From NCBI GenBank assembly GCA_963772155.1, contig CAVYVX010000016.1, positions 8,469-72,468 of the forward strand: a DNA stretch of 64,000 nt. Direction: 5' to 3'. Below, piece by piece: positions 4,159 through 45,908 of the stretch. The notes below the pieces were generated by a model that worked only from the letters and a program-made list of their open reading frames with translations, was not told the origin of the DNA and did not search any database. The translations under genes were made by a program, and so were the position numbers. Origin of the DNA: an uncultured Acidobacteriaceae bacterium. Its GTDB lineage: Bacteria; Acidobacteriota; Terriglobia; Terriglobales; Acidobacteriaceae. How positions within the stretch are numbered: position 1 is the first letter of the stretch; each line of letters starts with the position of its first letter.

Positions 4159-4173
4159 TCCTTGCGGTCGAAT

Positions 4174-13644: not shown

Positions 13645-13750
13645 GGGCTCGTACCAAGGTGTACCGGAGCCGCCCGCAAACGCCCATATAATTACAGCTT
13701 GGAAGAGTTACTCTCTTCGTCCCCCAAGAAAATCGGATCGCGGAGCTTTA

Positions 13751-17602: not shown

Positions 17603-17769
17603 ATAGAAACTGTGTGAGAACTACGATTTCAGAGTCGCGGGAGAATGGACCTAACGCTTTTCAGGCGCGAAGCGCCATAAGAATGCAGCCCACGGCGTCA
17701 GCCGTGGGTTCAAGTGGAAAAGCAACAAGCCCCAGCGGGGCGAAAGATGAGTTCTCACACAGTCTCTAT
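17603..17769. mobile_element. MITE-like element with 20-bp terminal inverted repeats
   Basis: ATAGAAACTGTGTGAGAACT (17603-17622) against AGTTCTCACACAGTCTCTAT (17750-17769), 1 mismatch. Internal hairpin CCCACGGCGTCAGCCGTGGG. Confidence 0.65.
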
Positions 17770-22155: not shown

Positions 22156-22817
22156 TCCGCGCACAAGAGTAGTTTCATACACTTAGACCGCGGCAGATGG
22201 CATCTTTCGCGGCTAATGCCACGCAATTCCGTGTGAACGGCACGGAAACGGCACGGGTACGAACACGCTAATATAAAGCAGCATAGAGCGCAACGGCTCG
22301 CGGAATTGACCGCAAGGCGCGGATGGTATAGGCGCTTATTCCAGGCGGACCTCGCGACCGCACAAGCGGAGCGGTTCATGGCACGGCCTATGGAAATCAG
22401 CCGCGACACGGGAGGCACAAGCGGCGAGCGTGGGCAGGCGAGAGGGAGAACGGGATATTTTTGCGCTAATTTGTGGGGCTAGAGCGGGATTTGTGGTCTG
22501 CCAGTCAAATCGGCTCCCGGCCACTAAACTTGACGGGATTCTGCCAATTGCCAGTTACTCAACCGAGCCTTATTCCCATCCGGCTTTTCCCGCGCTCGTG
22601 ACCTCACATCCTATTATGATATTTCTCCTTGACGATAGTGATTCTTTGGCCTAGCGTGGCCGTGTCGACAGGAAACGAGTTTCCACCTTGGTTTCGCCGA
22701 GCACGCCGGAGCACCCTTTTGCACTGGGCCTCAACCGTCGCGCCCCCTCCCAGGCACCGTTTCCCAGTTCAAAAGGGCGATGTCGAATTCAATTCCATAT
22801 TGGTTAAGGGAAGAGTT

Positions 22818-28367: not shown

Positions 28368-28443
<76 letters not shown>

Positions 28444-28842: not shown

Positions 28843-29241
28843 TCACGGCCCACCTTGCAAGAGAACAACCGGCTGACTGGATTTCGAATAGAAATGGCAA
28901 TCGAAACAATCAGGATGCAGGTTCACGGCGTTGTGGCACTTGTCGCAGAACCGGGTCTTGTCCTTGTGGCACTGGCTGCAACTATTCAAGGTGACCTCGT
29001 TTCGGATCCCATCCCGCACCGCCTTGTCCCTGAGTTCGTAGAGAAGGACCTTGTGGTTCTGTCGCATCCAGCCGATGTCTCGGACACAGCGCTCGGAGGG
29101 GGAAGACGAAACCTCCAGGAACGGTTTTTGGGGAAATATGGAGAGCCATGCGAAACGCCCCGCGCTGTACGCGAATGGGGACAGAATGATGACACCTGCG
29201 AGGGCTGGAAAAAGCCATGCCGGAGGTCTATTCGGCTTCAT
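28843..29241 (-). CDS. membrane-anchored triheme cytochrome c, DsrJ-like
   Basis: ATG at 29239-29241 lies 5 nt after GGAGG. N-terminal anchor AWLFPALAGVIILSPF. Three CxxCH motifs (CSQCH, CDKCH, CFDCH) in the last 45 aa. Extra Cys in SERCVRD. Overlaps the qmoC stop by 14 nt. Confidence 0.6.
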   Translation of the reverse strand: MKPNRPPAWLFPALAGVIILSPFAYSAGRFAWLSIFPQKPFLEVSSSPSERCVRDIGWMRQNHKVLLYELRDKAVRDGIRNEVTLNSCSQCHKDKTRFCDKCHNAVNLHPDCFDCHFYSKSSQPVVLLQGGP

Positions 29242-30430
29242 GAAGACCTCCCAGCGGCTGCCGGCCAGTATGCTCTGCATACACCATCGCAGTGGCGCGG
29301 TAGATCATGTGGGCGAACTTGGAGTAGGGCAGCAGCACCAGCAGCGCGAACACAGTTGCGAGGTGGATGACGTACATCGCATAGCGGAGCGGGTCCACGC
29401 GCGCGTAGTGGAGAACCTCGCATCCGAATCCCGTAAGCACCGCAGCCGCCGCTAAGCCAAGAAACGTCCAATCGAACCAGGTTCCCTTACGGCCCGTGCC
29501 AGGCATTCGGTCGCGAACCATTCTGTCGCGGATCATGAGGGCGCACCCGATCAGGAGGGCGACACCCGCCAAATTGGCGAGGATCTTCCAGGGGCTCCAA
29601 AAGTTGAAGGGGTAAGCGAAACCATTCCCGAGCAGCGGGTTGAATCGAGCGGTCAGTACCCAGAGGTCCACGACGAGCAAGCCCAGAAAGCCAAAAAGAA
29701 CGAGCCGGTGGGAATTCATCCGCGACCGTTCAGCCGTGCACAGATCAAAGTCCTCATGCAGGATGATCCTGCGCAACGCCGATCGAACGCTCGCCATAAG
29801 CGATTGCGTTCGGCCCGTGCGTCCGGCCGCGCGGTCGCACGCCTTCAGGTCGCGCCAGAAGCGCATCACGCCCCAAGCCATTGCCACCGCATCCAGGAGC
29901 GCGAATGGCGCGAAAAATCCGATCAGGAGCCACTGCGGCAGTTGGCTCCAGTACGAAATGACGATGTGATTCGGGGTGGACGAAGCGGCGAAATACTTTT
30001 CCAATGGCGCGCGTATCCACACCATCAAACCCAGCAGTATGCACGGAATAAGCAGCAGGAGCGGCAGAGAACCAGGCCGGTTCACCCAATTGCCCAGCCA
30101 GCGCGGCACGCTGTAATGGACAATGGCTTCCCTCCGAATCGCCGCCATTACATCCCCTGGCCGCGCACCACGCGGGCAACGCAAGGAGCAGTCGTTGCAC
30201 TGATAGCAAAGCCAGACGTCTGGATCCGCGAGCAGCCGGTCTTTCAGGCCCCACTGCGCCCAAATCATTTCTTTTCGCGGAAAAGGCTTCTGGGCGCCGG
30301 AGAGTTCGCAAACCACCGAGCACATGGCGCATTGGAAACACTTCTTGAGGTCTTCGCCTCCGCTCGCCATGAGGCGATTGCGGAACTCTCTATCCGGCAG
30401 TATGCAAGCGGGAGTGGGCGTCGTCGTCAT
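29228..30430 (-). CDS. qmoC: quinone-interacting membrane-bound oxidoreductase subunit C
   Basis: HdrC-like CFQCAMCSVVCE and CYQCNDCSLRCP, followed by a multi-helix NarI/HdrE-like membrane domain. Position after qmoB. Confidence 0.85.
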   Translation of the reverse strand: MTTTPTPACILPDREFRNRLMASGGEDLKKCFQCAMCSVVCELSGAQKPFPRKEMIWAQWGLKDRLLADPDVWLCYQCNDCSLRCPRGARPGDVMAAIRREAIVHYSVPRWLGNWVNRPGSLPLLLLIPCILLGLMVWIRAPLEKYFAASSTPNHIVISYWSQLPQWLLIGFFAPFALLDAVAMAWGVMRFWRDLKACDRAAGRTGRTQSLMASVRSALRRIILHEDFDLCTAERSRMNSHRLVLFGFLGLLVVDLWVLTARFNPLLGNGFAYPFNFWSPWKILANLAGVALLIGCALMIRDRMVRDRMPGTGRKGTWFDWTFLGLAAAAVLTGFGCEVLHYARVDPLRYAMYVIHLATVFALLVLLPYSKFAHMIYRATAMVYAEHTGRQPLGGLHEAE

Positions 30431-30436
30431 CTTTTG

Positions 30437-32716
30437 TCAGCCCTTGAATGGGTTGAGACCCACGGCATCGATCTGCGCGGCAAACTCGTCGATGAGCGCC
30501 GGCAGCCGGTGGTAATCGGAAAGGGCGATTTCCTCGATGCGTACCCGCTGCTCCTCCAGAGCGAGTTGAAGAAGTTTCTGGCGTATGTTCTCACTGCGCG
30601 TACCCATCAACTCGCTGCCTCGTATGAAGTGGCACTGGTAGTCGTCGCCCGACTTGCATCCCAGCAGCAGGATGCCGTCGAATCCGTGCGCCAGCGCGTC
30701 GGCAATCCAGATCACATTGACCGCTCCCAAACACCGCACTGGAATCACGCGCACAAAAGGACTATAGCGAAGACGAGCGATGCCGGCGGCCTCCAGTGCG
30801 GGCAATGCGTCGTTTTCGCACGCCAGAATTAAGAGCCGCGGCTTCTCCTCGAATGCGTCGGGAATGTTCACCGCTTTGATCATCGAGGAGACGATGTCGA
30901 TCGAATAATCGCCAAATGAAATGATGCGCTCCGGGCAAGCGCCGAGACAGATGCCGCAGCGGCGGCAGCGCCCCGGATTCGGAAGCGGAGTGCCTTTGTC
31001 GTCCTCGTCGAGGCTGCCAAAGGGACACTCCTCAGTGCAGCGTTGGCACTGCGTGCAGCGCTGCATGTAAAAATCCGGGAAGGACAGATCGCCCCATCGC
31101 GGATGCAGGGTGACTCCCCGCGCGGTCAGCTCCACACATTGGATCGCCTTGAGCACCGCTCCCTCGGCGTCCGCGAGGCAGCCCTCTATATCGTTGGGCG
31201 CGCGCATACAGCCCGCCGCATAGATACCCGTCCGCCGCGTCTCGTAAGGGAAACAGATGAAGTGCGAATCGGGAAATCCGCCAGGCAACATCGGAAGGTC
31301 GGGACCCTGCCGATAGGTCAAGCGGAGCAGGTCCGTGCCCTCGTGCTGCCCCTGGTCCGCCACAAGCTGGCGTGCCCCGTCCAGTTGGGGCCCTGGTTGC
31401 CCCTTGTCAATGATGGCCCTGGCAATGATGGCCTTGGCATCGCGGACCTTCCGAATCGCTTCGCCATCGGCGGCAACCGGCACCATTCCCGTCGCCAGCA
31501 CCACGAGATCGGCCTCAACCTGGATTGAGGGTCCAAGCAGAGTGTTCTCGACGTTCACTTGCAGCCCCCGCGCGCTGCCGGCCTCAGCCGTAGTAACCGA
31601 GATCACATCCCCTTTCATCATGGATATTCCGGGGTCTTCTTGAGCGCGGCGATAGAAATCCTCGGACTGCCCCGGCGTGCGGATGTCTTTGTAGAAAATG
31701 TAGGCTTCAGCTTCCGGATCCAGCTCACGGGCCCACAGCGCCTGTTTCAGAGATACCCGACAACATACCGCGGAGCAGTAGGGAAGATGGGCTGCATCGC
31801 GCGATCCGGCACACTGCACGAATGCAATTCGCCGGGCTGGCCTGCCGTCGGATGGACGGCAAATCTGGCCCGTGGCCGCCAGACGTTCCATCTCGACATT
31901 GGTGATCACGTCGGGACTCCGGCCATAGCCAAGATGACCCAAGCGCGAGGCGTCATACGGCTTCCACCCGGTGGCCTGAACGATAGCTCCGGCTTGGGTA
32001 TGGACCGTCGAACCGTTGATAACCAACTCGACATCGAACTGACCGGGCTGGCCGCTGATGCTCTTGATCGCGGCAGATCGGTGAATCTGGATGCGGGGGT
32101 CTTTCTCCAACTGGAGAATCCAGTCGTTGAGATCGATGGCCTCCAGATCCCGGTACGGCGCGCTCTTGGGGAACTGTCGTTTGAAGGAGCGCAGCCATCC
32201 CCCGAGTTCGACCTCTTTCTCAACCAGCACGACCCGATAGCCTGCGCGGCTGGCCTCTCTGGCGGCGACCATCCCGCTGGGCCCACCGCCAACAACAAGG
32301 ATGGTACGGTCGGCGGCGATTTTGGCCGGTTCCCGAATCTCGGCCTTGAGCGCGCGCGCGATTCCCATGCGCAGGTTGTCCTCGGCAAGCATCTGCGTGT
32401 CTTCGTTGTGGGGTTCGTGGCTCCAAACCACCAACTCGCGCAAGTTCACCCTTTCCACGAAGCAAGAATCGAAGGAAAAAGTCTGGGAGTGAAAACGCCC
32501 TGAACAACCCGCAATGACCACCGATGCAAAACCGGACTGGATTCGCTCTTTGATCTGCGCCACTCCCTCATCGCCACAAAGAAACGAATGAGAGCGGCAA
32601 AGGCCCACGCAGCGCTCTTCAGCGGCAACTTTCTCGATGGCCGCCATGTCGAGCGAAGATCCGATGTCGCATCCGCCACAGATGAAGACCGCGACGTTTT
32701 TTTTCTCGTCAGCCAC
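30437..32716 (-). CDS. qmoB: quinone-interacting membrane-bound oxidoreductase subunit B (HdrA-like)
   Basis: MADEKKNVAVFICGGCDIG. FAD motif ILVVGGGPSGM. Ferredoxin motifs CTQCQRCTEECP and CRRCGICLGACP. MvhD-like C-terminus. Confidence 0.85.
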   Translation of the reverse strand: MADEKKNVAVFICGGCDIGSSLDMAAIEKVAAEERCVGLCRSHSFLCGDEGVAQIKERIQSGFASVVIAGCSGRFHSQTFSFDSCFVERVNLRELVVWSHEPHNEDTQMLAEDNLRMGIARALKAEIREPAKIAADRTILVVGGGPSGMVAAREASRAGYRVVLVEKEVELGGWLRSFKRQFPKSAPYRDLEAIDLNDWILQLEKDPRIQIHRSAAIKSISGQPGQFDVELVINGSTVHTQAGAIVQATGWKPYDASRLGHLGYGRSPDVITNVEMERLAATGQICRPSDGRPARRIAFVQCAGSRDAAHLPYCSAVCCRVSLKQALWARELDPEAEAYIFYKDIRTPGQSEDFYRRAQEDPGISMMKGDVISVTTAEAGSARGLQVNVENTLLGPSIQVEADLVVLATGMVPVAADGEAIRKVRDAKAIIARAIIDKGQPGPQLDGARQLVADQGQHEGTDLLRLTYRQGPDLPMLPGGFPDSHFICFPYETRRTGIYAAGCMRAPNDIEGCLADAEGAVLKAIQCVELTARGVTLHPRWGDLSFPDFYMQRCTQCQRCTEECPFGSLDEDDKGTPLPNPGRCRRCGICLGACPERIISFGDYSIDIVSSMIKAVNIPDAFEEKPRLLILACENDALPALEAAGIARLRYSPFVRVIPVRCLGAVNVIWIADALAHGFDGILLLGCKSGDDYQCHFIRGSELMGTRSENIRQKLLQLALEEQRVRIEEIALSDYHRLPALIDEFAAQIDAVGLNPFKG

Positions 32717-33995
32717 GATGAGGACTCACGCAATACTGGAGAGCTTTGAGCGCGGCGCTCGACGCATCGCGCACACAGGATGCGACGTCCATCGGACGCC
32801 GGGCACATCCCGCCGCAAAATGACCGGGCAGCGGCTGCGTACCCGACAAAAAACCATGGGGATCGCGGCTCAGCGCGCCCGACGGCAAAGCCGGATCTTT
32901 CCCAAGCGCCGGGACCATGCCCGCCGCCAGCACCACCAGACTTACTTTTTGGCGAATGCGGCTTTCGGCCAGCACGTCCTCAGCCTCGACCACCAAGTCG
33001 CCCGACGCTCCTTCCTCGGTTACCTTGGCCACTTTGCCTTTGATGAGATGAAGCTTGTCGTCCTTTTGGGATTCGGCAAGAAACAGCTCTTGCCTGCCCG
33101 GGGAGCGGAGGTCGATGTAGTAGACATAAATGTGGGCGTCCGGATATTGCGCCCGCACATACCTGGCTTGCTTGAGCGACGCCATGCAACAGACGCTGGA
33201 GCAGTGTTTGAGGTGGTTGTCGTCGCGCGACCCGGCGCACTGCACGAAGGCCACGCTTTCGATCTCCTTGCCATCGGAAGGACGGACGATCCGGCCTTTT
33301 GTAGGTCCAGATGGCGCCGCGAGTCGTTCCATCTGTACGTTGGAGACCATGTTGGCGTGGGCACCCAACCCCTCGACCACGCTCGCATCGAAGGGGTTCC
33401 ATCCCGTGGCCCATATTAGAGCCTGGACCTCAAACTCAAGGCGGAGCGCGGCCATCCGCAGGTTGATAGCATCGTAGGGGCAAGCCGCCACGCACTTGCC
33501 GCACTGCTCACCGACGCAGGTGGCGGGATCGATCGTGTATCGAAAGGGCCAGGCTAGGTCGCTGGGAAGGTATATGGCGCGGGTCGCTCCCATGCCGTAG
33601 TTGAATGCGTCGGAGCGCGATTCCGGACAGACCGCGACGCAGTCTCCGCAGGCCGTGCACCGTTCATTCACGAATCGTGGCTGCTGCTCGACCGTCACCC
33701 GATGGCAGCCGTCTTCGGTCCGCACCTCGGTCCGCACCTCTGCCACTTCCGACAAGGTAAGGCATCGGATGCGCGCGCTGCTGCGAATTCGCCGGAGGTT
33801 GATTTCGAGGCCGCACAACGGTGGGCAGAGTTTGGGAAAGTACTGATGCATCTGCGCCACGCGCCCGCCGAGATAAGCGCTGCGCTCGACGAGGATGACG
33901 TCGCACCCGGCCTCCGATGCCTCGATGGCGGCGGTGATGCCCGTGATCCCGCCGCCCACGACCATCACTGTGCCACGGCTGTCGCATCCTCTCAT
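32709..33995 (-). CDS. qmoA: quinone-interacting membrane-bound oxidoreductase subunit A (HdrA-like)
   Basis: VMVVGGGITGITAAIE. CTACGDCVAVCP and CGKCVAACP. An 8-nt overlap with qmoB. Confidence 0.85.
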   Translation of the reverse strand: MRGCDSRGTVMVVGGGITGITAAIEASEAGCDVILVERSAYLGGRVAQMHQYFPKLCPPLCGLEINLRRIRSSARIRCLTLSEVAEVRTEVRTEDGCHRVTVEQQPRFVNERCTACGDCVAVCPESRSDAFNYGMGATRAIYLPSDLAWPFRYTIDPATCVGEQCGKCVAACPYDAINLRMAALRLEFEVQALIWATGWNPFDASVVEGLGAHANMVSNVQMERLAAPSGPTKGRIVRPSDGKEIESVAFVQCAGSRDDNHLKHCSSVCCMASLKQARYVRAQYPDAHIYVYYIDLRSPGRQELFLAESQKDDKLHLIKGKVAKVTEEGASGDLVVEAEDVLAESRIRQKVSLVVLAAGMVPALGKDPALPSGALSRDPHGFLSGTQPLPGHFAAGCARRPMDVASCVRDASSAALKALQYCVSPHRG

Positions 33996-34090
33996 GGATT
34001 ACGTTCCCTTCATGGGGAGGGATCGAGCGCGTTGCGCTGGCTGCCCACTGCACGGACGATTGGATGAATCCGAAGCCGAAGCCGAATCCT

Positions 34091-36007
34091 TCATGGCGCG
34101 CTTTTCTCAGGCCGCTTGCCGACAATGTACTTCACCGGCCGCTTCATCATCTTCCACTGGCCCGTCGTTCGATCGAAGATGCAATTGCAGAAAGCCAGCC
34201 AGTCCTGGTTGTCGAGGGACGGCTTATCGGTGCGGAAATAGTATCCAGGCCACCGTGTCTCCTCGCGGAAGTACATGGACTGCACGTGGGCTTCGGCCTG
34301 GTGCAGGCGATGAACGCTCTCCCAGCAACGCATCAACTCGTGCGAGTTTTCGGCGGCCAGAAGCGCGGAGTCCGTCCTCAGAAATGCCAGAAGCTCCATG
34401 CCCTTTTCCAGGAGCTTGCCGCTGGTCTTGAACTGGCTCGACACGCCACCCGCATACTCGTCCATGATCTTCTGCAGGCGGTACATGAACTGTTTGGGAC
34501 GAAGATAGGCGGGGTTGACATCGGGGTCCGTGGTATTGGCTTGATTGGCCTGAAACACATCGAGGGGCTTGAGTATCTCGGACTTTAGAGTCTCGATCAA
34601 TGCGAGGTCAACCTGCGGGGCTGTGTTGTGGTCAGCGATGTAGGAAATGGCTCCTTTGGCCGCAATGCGCCCCTCGGTGAACGATCCCGAGGAGAACTTG
34701 TGACTCGATGCCCCGGACGCGTCGCCGGCGGCGAAGAGGCCAGCGACAGTGGTCATGTTGGGGTAACCCCAGCAGTACTCCGGCCTGGTCGCATCGTTCT
34801 GTAGGTCCGCGGGGCCGGAAACCCAGGCGCCGGAAGCGCCGGAGTGCGAACCGATGAAATAGGGCTCGCACGCCATGATCTCGGATGGTTTGACCTCGGG
34901 TTCGACATTGGTGGCGGCCCAGAGGATCGCTTGTGAGATGGTCATGTCGAGGAAGTCTTCCCACGCCTCCGACTCGAGTTCCTTGAGCTTCTTCTTGGCC
35001 GTTTTCTCGTCCGGCGACTCCTTTGCTATGCGCTGGATCGCGTCCGCCGTCTGCATGTAGATCGGCCCCTTGCCCTCCATCACGTCGAGCATCATGAGCC
35101 AGTTGCGCAGGTTCGCGGGCACGGGTTTGACGTGGCCGTAGGGTGCCCATTTGTCCAACTCGGCGGCGTTTTCGACCATGTAATCCTTGCCCGCGGCGTT
35201 GGTGGCGATGGCTTTGAAGAGCAGGAACCACGCACCCACCGGGCCGTAAGCGTCCTTGAAGCGCACCGGTATGAACCGGACTTCCTGGCAGGTCATCTCG
35301 GCCCCGGCGTAGATGGTGAAGAACGCGCTCGCTCCCGAGTTGAACGGCGGATACCAGGAGCGGCCGAACCCCTCTCCCGTGGAACGGGGCTTGAAGATAT
35401 GCACGGCGCCACCCATGGCCACCAGTGTGGCCTTGGCCTCGAACACGTACACGGTGTTCTCACGAGTGCTGAATCCGATTGCGCCCACGCACCGGTCGCC
35501 ATCCATCAACGGATGGGTCAGGAATACCCTCTCGAAGTACTGCCCTCCCGCTTCGGCCAGCGCGTTCTTGGCCGCTTCCGCCACGATGACCTTGTAGGAC
35601 TCGCCGTTGATCATCAACTGCCAGCGCCCCTCGTGCACGTACTTGCCATCCTTGTCCTTCCATATGGGAAGGCCCCACTTTTCAAAGAGGTGGACAGTGG
35701 AATCGACGTGGCGTGCGACGTTGGCGACGAGGTCCTCGCGTGTGATCCCCATCAAGTCGTTGCGGACGTAGTCGACATAGTCTTTCACGCTGTTGTTGCC
35801 GCTATTGAGGTCAACGTACATGTTGATGGCCGACAGCCCCATGGCGACGGCGCCGGACCGCTCCATCGCCGCCTTGTCCACCAACGTGACCTTCAGGCCG
35901 TGCTGGCGGGCCCAATAACTGGCTTCGACGGCCGCGCCGCAGGCAGCCATGCCCCCTCCGCAGATGAGTAGGTCCGTTTGCACGACTACGGTCTTGAAAT
36001 CAGCCAT
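34091..36007 (-). CDS. aprA: adenylylsulfate (APS) reductase alpha subunit
   Basis: FAD motif DLLICGGGMAACGAAVEA. Size and position directly after aprB. The ATG at 36005-36007 (MADFKT) lies 9 nt after AGGAG. Confidence 0.9.
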   Translation of the reverse strand: MADFKTVVVQTDLLICGGGMAACGAAVEASYWARQHGLKVTLVDKAAMERSGAVAMGLSAINMYVDLNSGNNSVKDYVDYVRNDLMGITREDLVANVARHVDSTVHLFEKWGLPIWKDKDGKYVHEGRWQLMINGESYKVIVAEAAKNALAEAGGQYFERVFLTHPLMDGDRCVGAIGFSTRENTVYVFEAKATLVAMGGAVHIFKPRSTGEGFGRSWYPPFNSGASAFFTIYAGAEMTCQEVRFIPVRFKDAYGPVGAWFLLFKAIATNAAGKDYMVENAAELDKWAPYGHVKPVPANLRNWLMMLDVMEGKGPIYMQTADAIQRIAKESPDEKTAKKKLKELESEAWEDFLDMTISQAILWAATNVEPEVKPSEIMACEPYFIGSHSGASGAWVSGPADLQNDATRPEYCWGYPNMTTVAGLFAAGDASGASSHKFSSGSFTEGRIAAKGAISYIADHNTAPQVDLALIETLKSEILKPLDVFQANQANTTDPDVNPAYLRPKQFMYRLQKIMDEYAGGVSSQFKTSGKLLEKGMELLAFLRTDSALLAAENSHELMRCWESVHRLHQAEAHVQSMYFREETRWPGYYFRTDKPSLDNQDWLAFCNCIFDRTTGQWKMMKRPVKYIVGKRPEKSAP

Positions 36008-36046
36008 GTTCATGTTCTCCTTAGGACTTTCCGAATCCTGAAACAC

Positions 36047-36514
36047 CTACAGTGTGGGAACCTTGTCTAGTTTGACCCGTCCAACTTCCGTGTTCAAACC
36101 CGCGGGCTCACACATCAATGTTGGACTCTTGAGATCGGCGTCGGCGGTCGGGTATTGATCGAAGGGCTTGGCTTTGCCCTCCGCAACGCCTCGTCGAATG
36201 GGGAAATTGAAACGCTTGGGCCGGATGTCCTGGTTGCGGAATTGCACGGTCCACAGGATGTCCTCGCTGCTTCGCATCGCGGTCACGTTCGCGCCCAGGG
36301 GAATGAAATCGGCATACCCGCGGACCTCGATGGCCTGCGTGGGACAGATCTTTACGCAGTTGTAACATTCCCAGCACATCGAGGGATCGCGGTTGTAGGC
36401 CTTCATGATCTGCGAGTTCAGCACCATGAGGTCGTTGGGGCAGATATACTGGCAGGCGGTCTTGTCGAGCGCCTTGCATCCGTCACATTTGTTCGCGATA
36501 ACAAAACTGGGCAT
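36047..36514 (-). CDS. aprB: adenylylsulfate (APS) reductase beta subunit
   Basis: MPSFVIANKCDGCKALDKTACQYICPNDLM...CWECYNCVKICP plus the characteristic C-terminal tail. Confidence 0.9.
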   Translation of the reverse strand: MPSFVIANKCDGCKALDKTACQYICPNDLMVLNSQIMKAYNRDPSMCWECYNCVKICPTQAIEVRGYADFIPLGANVTAMRSSEDILWTVQFRNQDIRPKRFNFPIRRGVAEGKAKPFDQYPTADADLKSPTLMCEPAGLNTEVGRVKLDKVPTL

Positions 36515-37318: not shown

Positions 37319-39991
37319 ATGGAAACCGTCATAGGGACGGAAATTCGCGATTTCAGGCTGCGCGGCAACTACGTTAATCAGCGCAGCCTCCTGTCCGGGA
37401 TAGACCCGCATTCTCGCAGGATGGAAGACATAGTTCCGGACAGCCCGGAATACTCCCCGGCCGTGGTCGAGTTCGAACTTCACGATGGTCAAACCGGCAG
37501 CATCGTGGTCAGTGAAGTCGATATTCCTCTACTATGCGACGATGATTTTGAAAAAGCGAAAGCGCACCTTGGGCTGCTTCTGAATGCCCGTCAAGGTGAC
37601 GCTGAGGCTGCGAAGAAGCTTGCTTCGCAGGCGCAAGAACAACGCTTGGCAGCGGAGCGAATTCAACCATCCGAAAGCGGTTTTGTCGTTCCCTCAACGA
37701 GCTGTGAGACCCACTCGGAGCAGGACATAAGTCAAAAGGCATTCGTCCTCCTGAAACTAAGCCAACTTGGCTATCCTGTGCCGGACTTCGTCGTACTTAC
37801 GTCCCAGACTTATGCCGAGCGTGCCCAGCGCTTCGAGGAGCACATCGCGGACGCCATCAAGCAACTCGAAATCCTCACCATGCGGAGACTGGGAGACTGC
37901 GAGAGGCCGCTCGTCTTCGCGATTCGCTGCGCCACGCCCCACTATATTCCCGGAATCCTGGACACTTATCTCAACGTCGGCGTGACCGAAAGTACGTTGC
38001 CCAGTTTGGAGAAGATGTACGGCCCGGTGGCCGCGCGCAAGATGTTTCTGAATAACCTCAGAAACCTGTGCCAGGCCCTCTACCATGACAAGCATGTTGC
38101 GATTATCAAGGCCGTCAAGTCCGACCTGCGTCCCGATAAGGTTGAGCGTCTCGTGGAACGGCTGTCGGAGGTCGTCAGGAAAACCGACCGGAGATTAATT
38201 GAGGATGCCTTTTTTCAGGCCACCTTTTTTGCCAGGCAGGCCTACGAGCATTTTGAAAAGAACCTGGAACTCGTGCTCACACTGTGCCGAGGCGCGGAAC
38301 ATTATCCCAGTCTCATTTTGCAGAAAATGATTTGCACGGTCCGGCACGAAAATGCCTATGCCGGAGTCGTCTCCAGCCGCAATACGCAAACGGGTTTGGG
38401 CATAGAACTGCAAACCACCCGCAATATTTTCGGCGAAGAGATGATGACGGGAACAGCCGAGATCCAAACGACCTCTTTCGAGGACCGCGAGGCAATCAAG
38501 GACGCCTTTCCCGCCGTCTATCATTTTGTCCCACGCCTCAGGGACCTGGAGCGGGAGTTTGAGTCCCCTGTAACCATCGAGTTCGCGGTCGAAGCCACGG
38601 AAAGACAGCAATTGTTCGCGCTCCTGCAACTGAATCAGACGGGAATGGCGGGGCGAGCGGCAATTACTTCGGTGGTGGACATGCACAAGTCGGGGACAAT
38701 ATCGCGGCAACGCGTGACCGAGCTCATCCGGCCCTACCACCTCAGGCAGCTAACCAGCGACACCATCGACCAGGACGCTTTCCTTGTGCTTAAGAGCTTC
38801 TGCTCGGGATTCGCGGTTTTGCCCAGATCGGCAGTCTCGGCGCGCGTTTACTTCACGGGTGACCGCGCTTTGAAAGCCAAGATCCGGGGCGAGACGGTAT
38901 GTCTTTGCAAGAAGACGTTTTCGCCCACCGACACTGTGGTGATGCGCGAGATGGATGCAATCATAAGCCTGACCTCGGCCGCGGTGCACGTAGTCACTAT
39001 CTGCCAGAGCTTGGGCGTCCCGGCCCTGCTCAGCCTTGAGAAAAACGGCGCAACCTTGCTGCCTGACGGGCGCCTGGTTAATTCCTTCGGGATGGAAATC
39101 AGGGAGGGGGATTGGATCACGGTTTCCTCCAGGCGAAGAACTCTTTACGAAGGGAAGGCGAAGTTCAAGCCCGCCAGACTCTTGCGCTACATGAGGGGAG
39201 AGCCGGTCGAGCTGGATGAGGAAGAGCGGAAAGTCTTTGCCGCTATGGCCTATTCATACCGCTACTACAAGCAGTTGACCCGGGGCCTCGAGGTCGATCA
39301 GATCTCCACCCTCAGCGAAGTCGTCAGGCTGGTTGACTTCGAGCTGCGCGGCGAATCGGAAGAAGCCAGGCAACTGGTCAACGGCTGGTTCGACGAACGC
39401 GAAGCGTTGTACATGGAAGAGGTCCTGAAGAGCGACATCGGCGACCACCTCGGGCAAAGCAACGTTTTCGAGATGCTCACCTTGGACCGGAAGATCAGGT
39501 TCTTCAAGCAGGCCCTGGCCAAGTGCTCTGGTCAACGCATCTCCGGCTACGAGGCGGGCGCTTTCATGCTGGGCCGCTTCTTGTGCTTGCGCTATCCCGC
39601 CGCTTTCTGGAAGTGCTTTACCCCATCCGAGATCGGGCTGCTCGTGAATGAGTGGGTCCTCTTCGAGAAATACATGCAGGTCTTGCAGAACGTAGGCGAG
39701 AGAAAAATTCTACTGGCGCGAAAGCAGATCCTCAAGCGTGGGCTCGAACAGCTTTCGCTTAACCCCGGCAACTTGCAACCACTCATCACGCTTAAACTGA
39801 GCGGCGTCAAGCTGGAGGAAGCGAAAGAGTCTTTGCCCGAATGGAGCGATCCCCAGTCCAAGCGGGTGCTCGAACTTCTGCAACAGCCGTACCGCGTTTT
39901 TTACGATTTCAACGCGGCATGGTCCGTCAGCCAACTGGAGAAGATCTGCCGCGAAGAAGGCCTCCCCTTACCGGGCCCCGATGCCTGCTAG
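37319..39991 (+). CDS. PPDK-like dikinase: ATP-grasp (PPDK_N) plus phosphohistidine swivel domain, no PEP/pyruvate TIM barrel, novel N- and C-terminal regions
   Basis: [32 protein letters not shown] aligns with PPDK [48 protein letters not shown] aligns with SHAAVVARGMG (His at 38987-38989). No RTEHMF, GSNDLTQ or CGE motifs after residue 618. Confidence 0.7.
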   Translation: [890 protein letters not shown]

Positions 39992-42523
39992 AGTGGCCGG
40001 CCCCGGCGCCGTGGGCCGCGACTTCAAGCCGTATAGATAATCGCGGTCAATGATCGATTCCATCTCCCGCAGCACTTCGGGAAGTTCCTTTCCGTCCCTG
40101 GCGGCAATCAGGCGGCCCAGCGCGAGCGACAGGGAAAGCACCGCATTCATGCCGAGATTCGCCTTTCTCTGCATGATCTGGATCTTCTCCTCCACGCTCG
40201 CGTTGGGAGCGATCTTGCCGCGTTTCATGGCGAGATCCAGTTCCAGCAGCAAAAGCTCGCGGTCGATGTCGACGAGCGTGCCGAGCGCCGAGATCTTCTG
40301 TCCCAGAAAACGGGGGGCGAGCACTTCGGTCACGTTGGCCACCGCGTTGAGGCACCCTTTCCCGTTGTAACGCTTTGCCCTCATCCAGAGGTCGCCCAGT
40401 TCGCGATTTTTCCTGGTGACGTTCTCGGCCTTCACGTTGGCGGCAAAGCGGTAGGTCTTTTCTTTCTCCTTGAAGACGAAATAGTCCGGGAATTTCCGCG
40501 TGAGCGGATTGGCCTCGATAATGCTGTCGACCAAGTGGATGGCCTCATCCGTCCCCGCCGAGGTGCCCAGGGGCGTGGCCGCGGAGAACTTCATCCCGTT
40601 GTCGAGCGTCACGACCACTCCCACGGTTGGGATGCCCGCGTTCGTTGGCTCCTCGTGAGCGGAAATGTCGGCGATCATGAGATCGGGATCGAGCTTCCGC
40701 GTGATCTTGATCCCCTTCTTCGCCATTTCCATCAATTCGACTATTCTTCCGTACTTGACCAGCCTTTCCGTGTTGGCCCCGCCTCCACATTTCAGGCCGA
40801 GCGCGCCCACCGCGAAACTGATGTCGGCTTCCATTACTTCGTTGGGAGATTTGGAGCGGTGGGATACCACCAAAGCCAGCCCCAACTGCTTCGCCATGCG
40901 AGTGGCCAGCAGGGTCTCACTCAGCGTGCCGATCTGATTGGCTTTAATCAGGGCAGTATTGATGAGCCCTTGCTCGGCGCACCTTTGGATCGTGGTGTCC
41001 TTCGTCGTCACCAAATCGTCCCCGATGATGAGGATCTCCTGGTCGAGGGCCTTCATCAGCTTCTTCCATCCTTCGTAGTCGTCCTCGGCGAAGGGGTCTT
41101 CCAACGAGACGATGGGATATTTCTTTACCCAACTAATGTATAGGTCGACCATTTCGTCCGTGCTCAGGACCTTGGGGTCCTCAGCTCGCCAGAAGAGGTA
41201 CTGGCCGATCGACTCCTTCTCGCCGGTCTTCTCCCGGTAAGCACTGCTGAGTTCACTGGCGGCCGGATCAAGCGCGATGCAAACATCCTGATCGGGGACA
41301 AAGCCACATTCCTCGATGGCCTGCACGGCCACCCTTAATGACCTCTCTTCGGGGAGTAAATCGCCCTTCTCCTTGGCATAGGAGGCGACGATTCCTCCTT
41401 CCAGGCCTACGCCCACAAAATTGAGCCCTTCCGTATCCTGAATTATCTGGATTGCCCGGCTTTGCAGAAGATTGGTGACTCGCTGCGCCTCAATGTAGTC
41501 TTTGGCGGTGAGGGGAAGGAACATCAACTCCTGGAAGCTCAGGTTGCCGCCCATCTCCTCGGTGTGACGCCCGCCCATGATGCAGTTTCTGAACTCCCAT
41601 GGGGCAAACACAATCTTTCCGTCCGCCAGTTCCAGCTCCTGGAGCCGGTGCAGCCTGAGCTTGCGCCGCAGCTCGGCTGGCTTGACCGAGCGCGCCTCTT
41701 GCGTCTCGCCGACTGGCTCCGTGGCCCGCACTTCCGCCACCCTGGCTGCCGCCTCTCTTTGCCTCTCCTGGAACGCCTTGTATTTCCCTGCGTCCGAGAG
41801 CAGGAAGTCGAAGAGGGCAACCACCCCAATGGTGAACAGGGCCCTTCCCACGTACACCGCTGCCGGCAACGCCGTGTACAGGCCCAGCATGATCAGAACG
41901 ATTCCCGGCAAGAATGTGAACTGACTAAGTATCTTGCTCGCTCTTGGCCCCGCCGCCGACACAGCCAAATTCTGCGTCTTCACCGCCGGGTGGAAGCTCC
42001 CCGCCTCCTTATGTACTCCCGGGAAAGTTCCGTACGGGATTTTCACGAACATCTCGAGATACCAGAGCCACCTGCCAAGCGGCCCTTGCTTCAGTTTTTC
42101 CTCCGCCGGCGCCGCCAGCTCCGGTCTCAGATTGTTGGTCTTGACCGCCGTCAGATAGTGCCCCATCTCGTGGATGGCAATATTGCAATGCCATGCCATA
42201 TACCACATCGCAGAGGAGATCACGACTTCAATGCTGAGAAACATCTGCCGCATGACGTCGAATTTCGATGCCACGTGGAGAGAAATGCTTAGTAAGGAGG
42301 TCAGGAAGGCGGCGTGGAAGGAAACCAGCTTGTGGTTGGCGATGATCCAGCCACGATCCAGGCGCGCAGTGTCGCTCGCCTCACGGGTCCACGCGAAAAT
42401 ACGCTCGGGGAGTCCGCGCAACGCCCGAACAATCCCAGCCGGGAGCTGTCTCCGGCGGCTGTTCTGATGTGGATGAGCGGATTGAACGACGGGGTCTTTC
42501 GACGGCCCGGAGTAATTCGGCAT
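39968..42523 (-). CDS. membrane HExxH (M50-like) domain fused to a circularly permuted enolase (C-terminal barrel first, N-terminal domain last)
   Basis: ATG at 42521-42523 lies 5 nt after GGAGA. The track start at 42649 is inside a MITE terminus. HEMGH at 42158-42172. Barrel motifs FQELMF, GLEGG, ALDPAASE, YPIVSLEDP, IIGDDL, LIKANQIGT, SHRS and LKCGG come before the N-domain motifs GIPTVGVVV, PLGTSAGTDEA, RYNGKGCLNAV and ANLGMNAVLSLSLA. Confidence 0.75.
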   Translation of the reverse strand: MPNYSGPSKDPVVQSAHPHQNSRRRQLPAGIVRALRGLPERIFAWTREASDTARLDRGWIIANHKLVSFHAAFLTSLLSISLHVASKFDVMRQMFLSIEVVISSAMWYMAWHCNIAIHEMGHYLTAVKTNNLRPELAAPAEEKLKQGPLGRWLWYLEMFVKIPYGTFPGVHKEAGSFHPAVKTQNLAVSAAGPRASKILSQFTFLPGIVLIMLGLYTALPAAVYVGRALFTIGVVALFDFLLSDAGKYKAFQERQREAAARVAEVRATEPVGETQEARSVKPAELRRKLRLHRLQELELADGKIVFAPWEFRNCIMGGRHTEEMGGNLSFQELMFLPLTAKDYIEAQRVTNLLQSRAIQIIQDTEGLNFVGVGLEGGIVASYAKEKGDLLPEERSLRVAVQAIEECGFVPDQDVCIALDPAASELSSAYREKTGEKESIGQYLFWRAEDPKVLSTDEMVDLYISWVKKYPIVSLEDPFAEDDYEGWKKLMKALDQEILIIGDDLVTTKDTTIQRCAEQGLINTALIKANQIGTLSETLLATRMAKQLGLALVVSHRSKSPNEVMEADISFAVGALGLKCGGGANTERLVKYGRIVELMEMAKKGIKITRKLDPDLMIADISAHEEPTNAGIPTVGVVVTLDNGMKFSAATPLGTSAGTDEAIHLVDSIIEANPLTRKFPDYFVFKEKEKTYRFAANVKAENVTRKNRELGDLWMRAKRYNGKGCLNAVANVTEVLAPRFLGQKISALGTLVDIDRELLLLELDLAMKRGKIAPNASVEEKIQIMQRKANLGMNAVLSLSLALGRLIAARDGKELPEVLREMESIIDRDYLYGLKSRPTAPGPATLAGIGAR

Positions 42524-42639
42524 GGCGTTCTCCAGTGACTGGGCGACAGCGCTGCGATTCGCCTGCAGTCCGCAAACTCGCTGCTCTGATTCGAGGACCA
42601 TTCCCAAATCGGCTTGGGATCGGTGTGCATCCCCTAGAA

Positions 42640-42765
42640 CTGGTTTCATAAATTAGGTTTTGGGCAGGGCACGACTTCAGCCGTGCCGCTCAGGGCCGCA
42701 ATTGATGTGGGCTTTAGCCCCTGAGGGCCTGGCTCCCCGTTCCGAAAAAACGTTTATGAAACCAG
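42640..42765. mobile_element. MITE-like element, same family as 4571-4748 (opposite orientation)
   Basis: 13-bp perfect termini CTGGTTTCATAAA (42640-42652) and TTTATGAAACCAG (42753-42765). The interior is homologous to the reverse complement of 4571-4748. Confidence 0.7.
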
Positions 42766-43005: not shown

Positions 43006-45522
43006 CTACTCCATTTTCGCGTACTTCTCTCGCGCTTCCTGCAGCATCGAGAGCACCGACTGTTTCTCCGTTTCGGTGTTCCACGAAGTATTACTCCGCA
43101 CTCCGGAAATCAGCCGGTCAATCCACGCGATGAAGTAAGCTGCGTCTGCCGCGCCGCGCACGGGAGCGCCAGCCACGTTTACATACACCGGACTGGTCGT
43201 CGCATAAGGGTATATGTCGAGAATCGGATACTCCGCTTTGTCGCTGAAAGCGCGCAGAACGCACCACCCGCTCGCCTCAAGCGGGATCGAGCCCTCAACG
43301 TGCGCCGAGCTGCGGCCGCTGTCCATCGCCAACTCCCGCGCCACCTTTCCGTTACAGACGACTTGGAGATGGTCCACCGGAACCATCGAAACCAGGTCCG
43401 CCGAAAACCGCACTTCTTGTCCCTTTTCCAGCCGCACTTCCCCGCCAATCGCCTGCCCTCCCAGCGAGAACCTCAGCAACGGCCCATTCGTCGCAAACGT
43501 CCGGCCCGCCTTGATCGCCCCGAGCCAAGGCCCGATCCTTAGCTGCCCGGAAGGCACTTCGGCATAGACGCGGTTCAATCCCACCGGCCCGCGCACCGAC
43601 GCGTAGTTGCCCATGAAATCCGTACCCGCGGCCGCGGGCAGCCGGAAACCGCAATTCAGCAGCTTATACCAGACCTCGGCCGTCGACTTATGATCGGAAA
43701 AACCGACTATCTCCATGTAATCAACCTTACCCAGCGCCACATCCGCGGGTAACTCGTCGGTAAGTGAAGCGTCCTTCACCGGATCGGGGAAACTGTCAAA
43801 AGGATGCACGTATCCCACCAGCGCGCCCTGTTCATGCGCCATATCCGCGACATTCGCATTTGCCGGATAAAGGCTGGCCGCCGCCGTATTGGGATAGGAC
43901 GCATAGCCGGGAATAATGAAGTTACGCGTCAGATTAAGTAACCCCAGATGTCCCCAATAACTCGTGTGAAACTCCTGTCCGTACAGCAGCAGATGGTCCG
44001 CGGTCGAGGCCGGGTCGAGTTGTGGCGAGAAGTACGTCATGTCGGGAACGCGCTGTTCCTTATTCACCACCAAATCTTCCACAATCGCCACATTTTCAGC
44101 CGCTGCCTGCTCCACCAGGTGCGCCGGAATATTCCGATATGTTCCCGCGTAGTTCATGTGCGTATGAATATCGCCGCCCACCCAAGCCGAGGCTGCGTCC
44201 ACGGCGATAGACAGCCCCACCATCCGCACCGTAAGCCGCGTGGTGTTATTGGCCTTCACCTCCACCTTGCGCCGTTCAAAATGATTTTCGAATCCGCGCA
44301 TCACTTCCACTTCGACATTGCCAACCGGCGCCGCGATCTCCGACGCACCCGAGGTGTCGAAGTAGTGCGCTTCAAACGGCCGCTCCGCGCGGTCAAAGCT
44401 GTCGTCGGCGTGCATCCATGCGTTGCCGGGAGCATAGGCCAGTCCGTCCGCGGCGGTCACGAAAACCCTCGCCGCTGCTGGGTTTCCAATAGCATCCACG
44501 ACACGCAGTGAAATTCGCCCCATCGGTTTCAGATATTTTCGTTCGCCCGCGACCACCTCCGTTTGCTCTCCGCCCGGTATCTTCTGTATCCACAGGGCGG
44601 TATTTCCATCGCGGTTGGAGATGAACGCGATCTTCGATCCATCCGGCGACCACCGGGGATTAGTGTTGTCAAAAGCGCCATAAGAAATGGGGAACGCATC
44701 TCCTCCCGCCGCCGGCATCAGCCATAGTTGGTGCCAGCTCTGGCCCAGATATGATGCATACACCATGCGCTTGCCGTCGGGCGAAAAGTCGGGACGAGCC
44801 TTCCAGTTCGTCTCCTCATCGTGGATCTCATGCGCCTCGGCGCCCGGTTCCACCTTGATCTTCCAGAAGCCGCCGGTGCCGTGAATGTGCCCCCGGTTCG
44901 ATATGAAGAGAATTGCCGAGCCATCTCGCGTCCACACCGGACTGATCTCGTGGTCCACCTTGCTGTAGTAATAGCGAGGCAGCGAGCTGACATTTTCAGG
45001 AGTAAGTTGCCACACGCCGCTGAGTAACCCGTCTGCGAATTGGCCGACAAAGATATGAAAGTGTCCCTTATAGGACGTCGACACGAACGCCAGGCGTTTT
45101 CCATCCGGCGAGAATCGCGGCTCCACATTCACCGCGCCTCCGGATGTCATCTGCCGCGTCCGCCCATCTCGCAAATCCAGCGACCACAATTCGATGGCGT
45201 CGCGATCGTAGCGCGCAAAAACCACCCATCGTCCATCGGGCGACCAGTCCGGCTGATAGTCATAGCCCGGTCCGGCGGTAAGCTGCTCCGCATTCGCGCT
45301 GCGCAGTTCCTGCCGCCACAGCGAGCCCGCCATCGAATACACCAGGCTGTGCGAATCGGGAGACCAGGCTGCCGCGCTCGGCCCCGTCGTCAACTGCGGC
45401 AAATACATTTCCCTGTAGTAATACGGGTGCGGAAGATCGATCTGCTTAAGCACCGGTTCGCGCTGCGCGAAACAAGAAACACAAGTAAGAAGAAATAGAC
45501 AAGCCAGACGGAACTTTAACAA
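43006..45522 (-). CDS. secreted TolB-like PD40 beta-propeller fused to a CehA/McbA (PHP-type) metallohydrolase domain
   Basis: Repeated WSPDG/FSPDGK PD40 motifs. GGDIHTHMNYAG metal motif. TTG start at 45520-45522 lies 4 nt after GGAGG and gives the signal peptide LLKFRLACLFLLTCVSCFAQ. Confidence 0.65.
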   Translation of the reverse strand: MLKFRLACLFLLTCVSCFAQREPVLKQIDLPHPYYYREMYLPQLTTGPSAAAWSPDSHSLVYSMAGSLWRQELRSANAEQLTAGPGYDYQPDWSPDGRWVVFARYDRDAIELWSLDLRDGRTRQMTSGGAVNVEPRFSPDGKRLAFVSTSYKGHFHIFVGQFADGLLSGVWQLTPENVSSLPRYYYSKVDHEISPVWTRDGSAILFISNRGHIHGTGGFWKIKVEPGAEAHEIHDEETNWKARPDFSPDGKRMVYASYLGQSWHQLWLMPAAGGDAFPISYGAFDNTNPRWSPDGSKIAFISNRDGNTALWIQKIPGGEQTEVVAGERKYLKPMGRISLRVVDAIGNPAAARVFVTAADGLAYAPGNAWMHADDSFDRAERPFEAHYFDTSGASEIAAPVGNVEVEVMRGFENHFERRKVEVKANNTTRLTVRMVGLSIAVDAASAWVGGDIHTHMNYAGTYRNIPAHLVEQAAAENVAIVEDLVVNKEQRVPDMTYFSPQLDPASTADHLLLYGQEFHTSYWGHLGLLNLTRNFIIPGYASYPNTAAASLYPANANVADMAHEQGALVGYVHPFDSFPDPVKDASLTDELPADVALGKVDYMEIVGFSDHKSTAEVWYKLLNCGFRLPAAAGTDFMGNYASVRGPVGLNRVYAEVPSGQLRIGPWLGAIKAGRTFATNGPLLRFSLGGQAIGGEVRLEKGQEVRFSADLVSMVPVDHLQVVCNGKVARELAMDSGRSSAHVEGSIPLEASGWCVLRAFSDKAEYPILDIYPYATTSPVYVNVAGAPVRGAADAAYFIAWIDRLISGVRSNTSWNTETEKQSVLSMLQEAREKYAKME

Positions 45523-45908
45523 GAGCCCTCCACCATGGGTGTGGCGCAATCGCCGCCCGCGTCCCTTAGTCGTATGTATCACGAATCTCCTGCTTGACTT
45601 CAAAAGCGGCAACCAGTGTACACCCATCTCGCCTGCTCGCGTCACCGTGAAACCAATTTTCATACGGATCGCCCCCGTCGGTACGAGGTCCCGTACCAGC
45701 GCAGCCTGGATTACGCCATTTGTGGCCTACTTTTGCAACACCTGTCCTTACCCCACAATCCGCTGTTGACGATTTCACCGCCGGCCTGACCACCATCCAT
45801 CTATCCCGCCGGTACCGGCAGCAACGCGATCCACCCAGCTCGACTCCCGCTCGCTTCTCGCGCCACTTCCGCTGGCCTCACGATTTGAGTTAAGGTTGTA
45901 GACCGGAC

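Follow-up and report, generated by a model that had tools for sequence, protein, structure and literature searches.

What would a dikinase act on once the domain that serves its substrate has been exchanged? This question is raised by a gene at positions 37,319 to 39,991 of a 64,000-nucleotide stretch of DNA (the window) from an uncultured Acidobacteriaceae bacterium (GenBank assembly GCA_963772155.1, contig CAVYVX010000016.1, positions 8,469 to 72,468). The encoded protein, here called PPDKL, has the ATP-grasp and phosphohistidine domains of pyruvate phosphate dikinase (PPDK), followed by an all-alpha domain at the place of the phosphoenolpyruvate (PEP)/pyruvate barrel. Its gene converges on another, here called EnoP, in which a membrane domain is joined to a circularly permuted enolase. 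An earlier interpretation, made from the letters of the window and here called the sequence-only reading, had drawn attention to the gene.

Homology to PPDK and conservation of catalytic residues

The sequence-only reading had aligned residues of about 140 to 615 of PPDKL with PPDK, and our comparisons bear this out. The NCBIfam model TIGR01828 matches residues 137-623 along model positions 18-514 of 865 (E 1.5e-33), the C. symbiosum enzyme (1dik) matches residues 142-618 with its own residues 24-514 (phmmer against PDB, E 1.4e-21), and a profile of the PPDKL family aligns with a profile of canonical PPDK over residues 138-628 (hhalign, Prob 99.9, E 6.9e-38). When the full-length AlphaFold2 model (pLDDT 85.1, pTM 0.77) was searched with Foldseek, PPDK structures ranked first (1kbl, E 4.4e-30, TM 0.53), and the nuclear magnetic resonance structure of the isolated PPDK His domain (2fm4) superposed on PPDKL with a TMt of 0.86 and an rmsd of 2.1 Å. 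In Pfam, PPDK_N (PF01326) scores 22.5 bits over residues 170-359, the threshold being 27, and PEP-utilizers (PF00391) a sub-threshold 16.5 bits over residues 528-604. There is no doubt that residues of about 137 to 625 are homologous to the N-terminal two thirds of PPDK.

Residues were mapped onto the numbering of C. symbiosum PPDK through the HMMER alignment, and their conservation was counted in two alignments, one of 26 representatives with 26-64% identity and one of 101 homologs. K140, R203, G212, E421, Q437 and H557, which correspond to PPDK Lys22 (by ungapped extension of the phmmer alignment), Arg92, Gly101, Glu323, Gln335 and His455, are invariant in the family, in homologs down to 26% identity. 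The carrier histidine is thus conserved as originally claimed: H557 is found in 101/101 homologs, G566 stands at the place of Gly464, and the spacing of 9 residues between His and Gly is kept. The nucleotide loop had been described as a replaced GGKG. It is indeed modified, the family motif being S-x-K-G and the PPDKL of the window having A at the last Gly, but it is not lost, its lysine K140 being invariant. The equivalent Lys22 is essential for catalysis in PPDK and in rifampicin phosphotransferase (RPH) (PMC4844700).

Other positions of the PPDK site are changed. Asp321 is replaced by Thr at position 419 and Arg337 by Asn (97/101) or Asp at position 439, and Thr453-Ser454-His455 has become Ala-[Ile/Val]-His at 555-557, with Ala at the Thr453 position in 100/101 homologs and Ile or Val at that of Ser454. 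The Asn at position 439 gives PPDKL a Q-x-N motif, which resembles the E-x-N that provides the Mg ligands of classical ATP-grasp enzymes (D-Ala-D-Ala ligase, biotin carboxylase). The overall pattern of conservation is a better fit to a divergent but working ATP-grasp/phospho-His machine than to a dead one. As far as can be predicted, all features of the class of swivelling phosphohistidine dikinases (PPDK, PEP synthase, RPH and GWD) are present in PPDKL, namely the catalytic Lys, the Mg ligands, the mobile His domain and a separate acceptor module.

An all-helical domain in place of the barrel

The absence of the PEP-utilizer barrel, also part of the sequence-only reading, is confirmed. PEP-utilizers_C (PF02896) matches 0/26 family representatives, and residues 619-890 compared with the canonical PPDK profile gave an hhalign Prob of 0.2. 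The helical C-terminus of about 270 residues and the N-terminal region, both left unassigned in that reading, are not assigned by our searches either: residues 1-136 and 615-890 have zero Pfam matches even at E<=10, and residues 1-136 have no match to the PPDK profile in hhalign. AlphaFold2 models the N-terminal region as a small beta-sheet with helices, and R15, N20 and D68 are conserved in it. The C-terminal domain, modelled alone (residues 615-890, 101-sequence alignment), reached a pLDDT of 89.7 and a pTM of 0.83, with about 15 helices and zero strands. This model found no fold match among 350,542 PDB chains with Foldseek (best E 0.33, TM <0.3), and no homolog of the domain was found in the plasmid collection searched.

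Conservation in the C-terminal domain spans all clades up to residue ~800. W690, G708, H710 and Y785 do not vary even in homologs of 26% identity, and at least 90% of homologs share N688, Q713, G747, G752, R753, E778, K784 and E794. Such residues would be expected where an anionic ligand and a metal are bound. Because the fold is confident and invariant or near-invariant His, Tyr, Trp, Arg, Lys and Glu are found in all clades, the domain reads as a putative active site and not as a mere spacer.

Two other identities of this domain were considered and rejected. A degenerate TIM barrel is contradicted by the PF02896 and hhalign results and by the all-helix model, and no PPDK or Enzyme I barrel is among the fold matches listed. 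Likewise, homology to the rifampicin (RIF)-binding domain of RPH was dropped, as no RPH chain is among the PDB fold matches of the domain.

A large family under generic names

PPDKL belongs to a large family. It has >1,400 clusters at 90% identity, of which 653, many of them full length, are related to PPDKL itself at E<=1e-3, and 786 to a 40%-identical member. When clustered at 50%, it has 97 representatives that score <=1e-30, and full-length members extend down to 26-30% identity. The window clade (51-100% identity to PPDKL) comprises Terriglobia/Terriglobales, including Candidatus Sulfotelmatobacter, and a Desulfurellales metagenome-assembled genome (MAG). A mid clade at about 40% identity contains Bacteroidales/Bacteroidota, Cloacimonadota, Chlorobi, Syntrophothermus, a Clostridia MAG, and gut and rumen metagenomes, and a distant clade (26-30% identity) includes a Candidatus Hodarchaeota MAG. 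No cultured isolate is among the named family matches, and most matches have no source name.

The names given to family members at source are all "hypothetical protein" or generic labels of the PPDK/PEP-synthase type ("pyruvate,orthophosphate dikinase", "phosphohistidine swiveling domain-containing protein", "phosphoenolpyruvate synthase/pyruvate phosphate dikinase"). Full-text literature was searched without result for the PPDKL family and for enolases, permuted or membrane-bound, that are paired with dikinases. In one member, P0143 (1550 aa), the whole dikinase-like unit appears to have been duplicated in tandem: there are two matched stretches, and PPDK_N matches a second time at residues 1001-1061. 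P0143 had been considered as a Rosetta-stone fusion of PPDKL and enolase and was rejected as such; the sole fusion seen is that of the M50-like domain with enolase.

EnoP, a permuted enolase joined to a membrane domain

In EnoP, the Pfam match to Enolase_C (E 2.4e-57, residues 350-641) precedes that to Enolase_N (residues 659-709), and PDB enolases match the protein at E 6.5e-50. Compared with canonical enolase, both the barrel and the capping domain are present with all catalytic and Mg/phosphate-binding motifs; EnoP differs in the permuted order of these domains, in an insertion of about 115 aa, in the N-terminal fusion to an M50-like membrane domain with HExxH, and in a score of 243.9 bits on the canonical enolase model TIGR01060, below the cutoff of 300. 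The motifs were checked in 47 sequences (41 ORFs, that is open reading frames, of the EnoP cluster and six from the loci L058, L059 and L060). HExxH and most enolase catalytic motifs are each present in 43-46 of them, and the patterns LDxAA and GTS[AT]G, as written, in 35/47 and 29/47. Judged by its motifs, EnoP is a bona fide enolase and is predicted to be catalytically intact.

At the N-terminus the match to Peptidase_M50 (PF02163) is weak (17.5 bits against a cutoff of 27.2, E 0.003). The HEMGH motif lies in a hydrophobic segment and is conserved in the partner genes, and a candidate for the second metal-ligand Asp motif, LLSDAG, was assigned by eye. The true start of EnoP probably lies downstream of the ATG of the longest ORF, since alignments with homologs begin no earlier than residue ~93-97 and the protein collection lacks an exact copy of the 893-aa sequence.

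Linkage of PPDKL and enolase genes

The sequence-only reading had proposed a survey of the co-occurrence of PPDKL with the permuted enolase and with aprBA, which lies on its other side in the window. The two halves of this proposal fared differently. EnoP adjoins the PPDKL homolog in 45/46 acidobacterial-type species-level loci with enough downstream flank. It is the sole conserved neighbour in the window clade, every other ORF family being common to at most 6/51 loci, and all-against-all clustering of ORFs from 51 acidobacterial-type and 80 mid-clade loci yielded nothing else but shadow ORFs and synteny local to a lineage. In 16/37 related loci the two genes overlap at their 3' ends by 4 or 24 nt. 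AprB, AprA, QmoA and QmoB, in contrast, are found near the homolog in 0/50 genome loci, and among these loci there is one weak match to a QmoC-like ORF, at ~9 kb (L005). The adjacency of aprBA in the window is therefore coincidental, and the link to aprBA/qmo was rejected. The permuted enolase proved to be the key lead.

Enolase is also found beside more distant homologs, in other arrangements. Downstream of PPDKL in L058 and in the Hodarchaeota contig L053, and in the same direction, come a gene for a 260-aa 'HESGH' membrane protein (in L058, 28% identical to EnoP residues 160-288) and then one for a 510-aa permuted enolase. In L060 PPDKL is followed by a fused EnoP of 1197 aa (43% identical), with PGI nearby. 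L059 (5532-15487) has a canonical 444-aa enolase gene upstream, then PPDKL, a 551-aa enolase-like gene, an M50-like gene and a gene for a 714-aa permuted enolase; a Metallophos phosphoesterase is encoded just upstream, at 4012-5466. Glycolytic genes (enolase, PGI, GAPDH) adjoin the dikinase-like gene in three other loci. Because split and fused enolase variants recur in clades at 26-30% identity, the arrangement argues for an ancient functional link between PPDKL and enolase.

Neighbours in the mid clade include NhaA, GAPDH, CTP synthase, Zip and sensor kinases, the latter beside the dikinase-like gene of the Cloacimonadota locus. In a Bacteroidales-type genome (L051 6830-10670 and L052 3320-7160) the dikinase-like gene begins 4 nt after the gene of the NhaA Na+/H+ antiporter, with which it is probably co-transcribed, and an 805-aa ORF with no Pfam match lies divergently upstream of it. 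In the Clostridia locus L046, an ORF of 609 aa with hydrophobic stretches (12655-14484) follows co-directionally. It was considered as a relative of EnoP and rejected, having no similarity to it and no Pfam match.

Proposed mechanism

We propose that PPDKL is a three-station swivelling phosphohistidine dikinase, derived from PPDK and provided with a novel acceptor domain, which would work with EnoP at the 2-phosphoglycerate (2-PG)/PEP node. We hold this reading with about even confidence. The ATP-grasp domain would bind ATP-Mg via K140, R203, G212, E421, Q437 and N439 and would pyrophosphorylate or phosphorylate His557 on the swivel domain, with release of AMP. The swivel domain would then carry the phosphoryl group to the all-alpha C-terminal domain, positioned where PPDK has its PEP/pyruvate TIM barrel. 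Here an acceptor would be bound and activated by H710, Y785 and W690 together with the conserved R753, K784, E778, E794, N688 and Q713. PPDKL would act together with the membrane-anchored EnoP, sharing with it a substrate or product.

Since EnoP is by motif an enolase and the closest relatives of PPDKL act on PEP, the reaction is placed at the 2-PG/PEP/pyruvate node, and the acceptor or donor would most likely be a metabolite of this node. Perhaps pyruvate/PEP is handled at the non-homologous replacement domain, in which case PPDKL and EnoP would catalyse consecutive steps; this is the guess that we favour. Our data show the homology, the domain architecture, the conserved residues, the missing barrel, a C-terminal domain with no PDB fold match and the gene linkage; that PPDKL is a catalyst, which way the phosphoryl group moves and what accepts it are inferred from these.

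Several observations weigh against the proposed dikinase. The PPDKL and EnoP genes of the window clade are convergent and hence not co-transcribed. In the mid clade no adjacent enolase or conserved neighbour was found among 80 metagenome loci and 5 loci inspected individually, and the single enolase-adjacent locus of the 80, L138, looks like the window clade; L046 has no adjacent enolase either. Within the protein, the PPDK_N and PEP-utilizers scores fall under the Pfam gathering thresholds, and the PROSITE-type phospho-His signature G-G-x-T-S-H is replaced by P/S-A-A-[IV]-H in the family. Also, with Asp321 changed to Thr and Arg337 to Asn, the partial reaction with ATP may differ or be impaired.

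Alternative explanations

A wider claim, which we regard as doubtful, is that of an ancient and so far unrecognised phosphotransfer system of the PEP node, associated with the membrane, found in Bacteria and Asgard archaea and made up of three components, PPDKL, the permuted enolase and the M50-like membrane protein. Either the enolase barrel would replace the PEP-utilizers barrel, with direct coupling from 2-PG/PEP through His~P to ATP, or glycolytic flux and adenylate status would control an intramembrane protease. If such a system existed, coupling would be the dedicated task of the all-alpha C-terminal domain, which would then be a new fold.

The first of these variants can also be considered on its own, as a split PPDK, and on its own we think it unlikely. 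The barrel of EnoP would serve in trans instead of the PEP-utilizers barrel, and PEP made or bound at the enolase site would phosphorylate His557. The ATP-grasp domain would make ATP from AMP and PPi or Pi, or run in reverse, and the C-terminal domain would be a docking module for EnoP. The ancient gene linkage, with its split and fused variants, speaks for this explanation, as do the retention in EnoP of every PEP/2-PG- and Mg-binding motif and the lack of any recognisable PEP site in PPDKL itself; the ~115-aa insertion in the capping domain could moreover remodel access to the active site. However, the Bacteroidota clade retains all the invariant C-terminal residues without an adjacent EnoP, and the invariant His, Tyr, Arg, Lys and Glu suggest chemistry beyond docking. 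Loops normally close over the active site of enolase, and we know of no enolase that passes the phosphoryl group of PEP to a protein His; both points count against a split enzyme.

Less likely again, PPDKL could be a stand-alone dikinase for a small molecule (xenobiotic, antibiotic or phenolic), in the manner of RPH or phenylphosphate synthase, with the adjacent enolase having no functional meaning. Its architecture does show an exchanged acceptor module, as that of RPH does (PMC4844700), RPH and HpeI are also among the Foldseek matches (E 1e-6 to 1e-5), and the Bacteroidota clade lacks conserved neighbours as such an enzyme would lead one to expect. Yet PPDKL is much closer in sequence and fold to PPDK than to RPH or PEP synthase (PEPS), its domain order is unlike that of RPH, and its C-terminal domain has no match to the RIF-binding domain. 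The enolase link recurring in two clades at 26-30% identity, in differing gene arrangements, also speaks against it, and no resistance or aromatic-catabolic genes were seen nearby.

Lower still in our estimate is a regulatory phosphotransfer in which PPDKL would target a protein, be it EnoP itself or one that the M50/S2P-like intramembrane metalloprotease domain of EnoP would cleave. By analogy with Enzyme I of the phosphotransferase system (PTS), which delivers phosphate to a protein, ATP/AMP or glycolytic status would be coupled to regulated intramembrane proteolysis. The conserved HExxH of the partner, set in a hydrophobic segment with a weak Peptidase_M50 match, would agree with this, and the M50-like unit travels with enolase and PPDKL, split or fused. 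Fusions of S2P proteases with ligand-binding domains (CBS and PDZ, for example) are known, and sensor kinases neighbour the gene in the Cloacimonadota locus. Against these points, the M50 match stays under the gathering threshold, no conserved anti-sigma or sigma factor lies nearby, and a full enolase catalytic set would be superfluous for a pure sensor domain.

It is improbable that PPDKL is a pseudoenzyme keeping its ATP-grasp and His domains as a nucleotide-sensing scaffold without phosphoryl transfer: the lost T-S-H signature, the Thr and Asn at the Asp321 and Arg337 positions and the sub-threshold Pfam scores would suit one, but His557, K140, R203, E421 and Q437 show no variation even between very divergent homologs, Q-x-N is able to bind Mg in an ATP-grasp domain, and the invariance of the carrier His is hard to explain without chemistry.

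Significance

Dikinases of the PPDK/PEPS/RPH class are defined by their acceptor module, and each new one (glucan, rifampicin, phenol) has brought new biochemistry. The PPDKL family is spread over Acidobacteriota, Bacteroidota, Cloacimonadota, Clostridia, Desulfurellales and a Hodarchaeota MAG, where its members are annotated as hypothetical or misnamed as PPDK. Its linkage to an intact, permuted and membrane-tethered enolase suggests, from sequence and gene order, that a reaction or a point of control may have gone unrecognised at the 2-PG/PEP/pyruvate node, which is where glycolysis ends and conserves energy in anaerobes of soil, peat, sediment and gut. In practice, PPDKL genes should not be counted as PPDK in metabolic reconstructions from MAGs, including those of sulfur-cycling peatland Acidobacteria, a group that the window appears to come from.

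Features of the window

The features of PPDKL, EnoP and the module on the other side of PPDKL are collected in Table 1. The PPDKL gene sits between aprBA-qmoABC (29228-36514, minus strand) and the convergent EnoP ORF. Scans with Rfam and for promoters and terminators around the gene gave nothing relevant.

Table 1. Positions in the window of PPDKL, EnoP and the APS (adenosine 5'-phosphosulfate) reductase module
Feature	Position	Strand	Content or basis
PPDKL, PPDK-like dikinase gene	37319..39991	+	Intact ORF, ATG start, 890 aa and stop
PPDKL N-terminal region, family-specific (residues 1-136)	37319..37726	+	Without Pfam or PPDK-profile match
PPDKL ATP-grasp nucleotide-binding domain (residues ~137-470)	37727..38728	+	K140, R203, G212, E421, Q437, N439
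PPDKL linker helix with P-Y-H-L-R-Q motif (H474, Q477 invariant)	38732..38755	+	AlphaFold2 model, family alignments
PPDKL swivel phosphohistidine (PEP-utilizers-type) domain (residues ~490-615)	38786..39163	+	PF00391 sub-threshold, Foldseek to 2fm4
His557 codon (CAC), predicted phosphocarrier, equivalent to PPDK His455	38987..38989	+	Alignment, invariant in 101/101 homologs
PPDKL all-alpha C-terminal domain (residues 619-890), predicted acceptor-binding module	39173..39988	+	AlphaFold2, conservation
His710 codon, within invariant G-x-H motif of C-terminal domain	39446..39448	+	Family alignments
PPDKL/EnoP 3'-end overlap, 24 nt, convergent genes	39968..39991	.	ORF coordinates
EnoP	39968..42649	-	Longest ORF 893 aa; M50-like membrane domain fused to circularly permuted enolase
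EnoP enolase N-terminal capping domain (residues ~659-860), after barrel	40070..40675	-	GTSAG Mg/phosphate loop, ~115-aa insertion
EnoP enolase TIM barrel (residues ~340-645)	40715..41632	-	GGRH, QE, EGG, LDPAA, EDP, GDDL, KANQIG, SHRS
EnoP membrane region (residues ~97-300)	41750..42361	-	Hydrophobic segments, weak Peptidase_M50 match
EnoP HEMGH motif	42158-42172	-	Within membrane region
AprB	36047-36514	-	Dissimilatory APS reductase module
AprA	34091-36046	-	Dissimilatory APS reductase module
QmoA-like	32709-33995	-	Dissimilatory APS reductase module
QmoB-like, HdrA+FlpD	30437-32716	-	Dissimilatory APS reductase module
400-aa Fe-S ORF, possible QmoC	29228-30430	-	Dissimilatory APS reductase module

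The complete APS reductase module and an Acido-Lenti-1 small RNA at 17663-17708 on the minus strand (Rfam RF01687, 50 bits) fit a sulfur-cycling acidobacterium (compare PMC6018796), and the RNA by itself speaks for an acidobacterial origin of the window. One tRNA lies at 28371-28443 (minus strand). The 1805-aa ORF at 22629-28046 (plus strand) probably encodes a giant protease of the sedolisin type that is secreted; it contains a pro-kumamolisin activation domain as well as a Big_3_5 Ig-like domain. At 43006-45663 (minus strand), an 885-aa protein combines PD40/TolB-type beta-propeller repeats with a metallohydrolase domain of the CehA/McbA family (PHP-type); it is not conserved beside dikinase homologs. 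Further along on the minus strand (50325-52466, 53517-55511, 59523-61487 and 62102-63709) are two paralogous type I phosphodiesterase/nucleotide pyrophosphatase proteins and two sulfatase-TPR fusions. The second sulfatase-TPR protein matches just profile positions 142-301 and may be N-terminally truncated or have a miscalled start.

Comparison with known systems

Of the systems with a swivelling phosphohistidine domain, PTS Enzyme I is alike in layout, its swivel phospho-His domain passing the phosphoryl group to a partner through an all-helical sub-domain. It has no ATP-grasp domain and is charged by PEP through a barrel, and no match to it is among the PDB sequence matches listed or the best 50 of each PPDKL fold search. 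PEP synthase (PpsA; 2ols) shares the three-station logic and homologous ATP-grasp and His domains (Foldseek E 8e-7), but it has a PEP-utilizers_C barrel and is more distant from PPDKL than PPDK is.

The sequence-only reading had placed PPDKL nearer to RPH than to PPDK, and this did not hold, Foldseek giving E 4e-30 for PPDK and 6e-7 for RPH (TM ~0.18). RPH (5hv1, 5fbs) is similar in that its acceptor is bound by a family-specific domain other than a barrel, which is served by an ATP-grasp domain, with the essential Lys22, and by a swivel His domain (PMC4844700). Its ATP-grasp domain, however, is PEPS-like, and its domain order is ATP-grasp, RIF-binding domain, His (PMC4844700), with the His domain C-terminal, whereas in PPDKL the His domain is central, after the ATP-grasp domain and before the new one. 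The analogy thus holds in concept alone, as a swapped acceptor module.

The short PPDK-like proteins (NF004531/PRK05878, 534 positions) consist of just the ATP-grasp and His-domain half of PPDK and show that barrel-less PPDK homologs already exist; to our knowledge, their function is not well established. PPDKL matches NF004531 over residues 123-581 (E 1.6e-31) with 109.5 bits, the cutoff being 456, so it is not a member, and representatives of ~520-550 aa are found among the weaker family matches. The short proteins, of ~530 aa as compared with 890, are without the family-specific N- and C-terminal domains of PPDKL.

PPDK itself (TIGR01828; 1dik/1kbl) has a homologous ATP-grasp domain, including the PPDK-type helical subdomain, a homologous linker and a homologous swivel His domain in identical order. 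The P-Y-H-L-R-Q motif of the PPDKL linker has no counterpart in it, and PPDKL has an extra N-terminal region of 136 aa and a 270-aa all-alpha domain for the TIM barrel PF02896. On the PPDK equivalog TIGR01828, PPDKL scores 115.9 bits, below the cutoff of 843.45. By the barrel, the phospho-His signature and the equivalog score, PPDKL falls outside PPDK. What is new in it is a putative acceptor module with no fold match in the PDB, carried on the known chassis of a swivelling dikinase.

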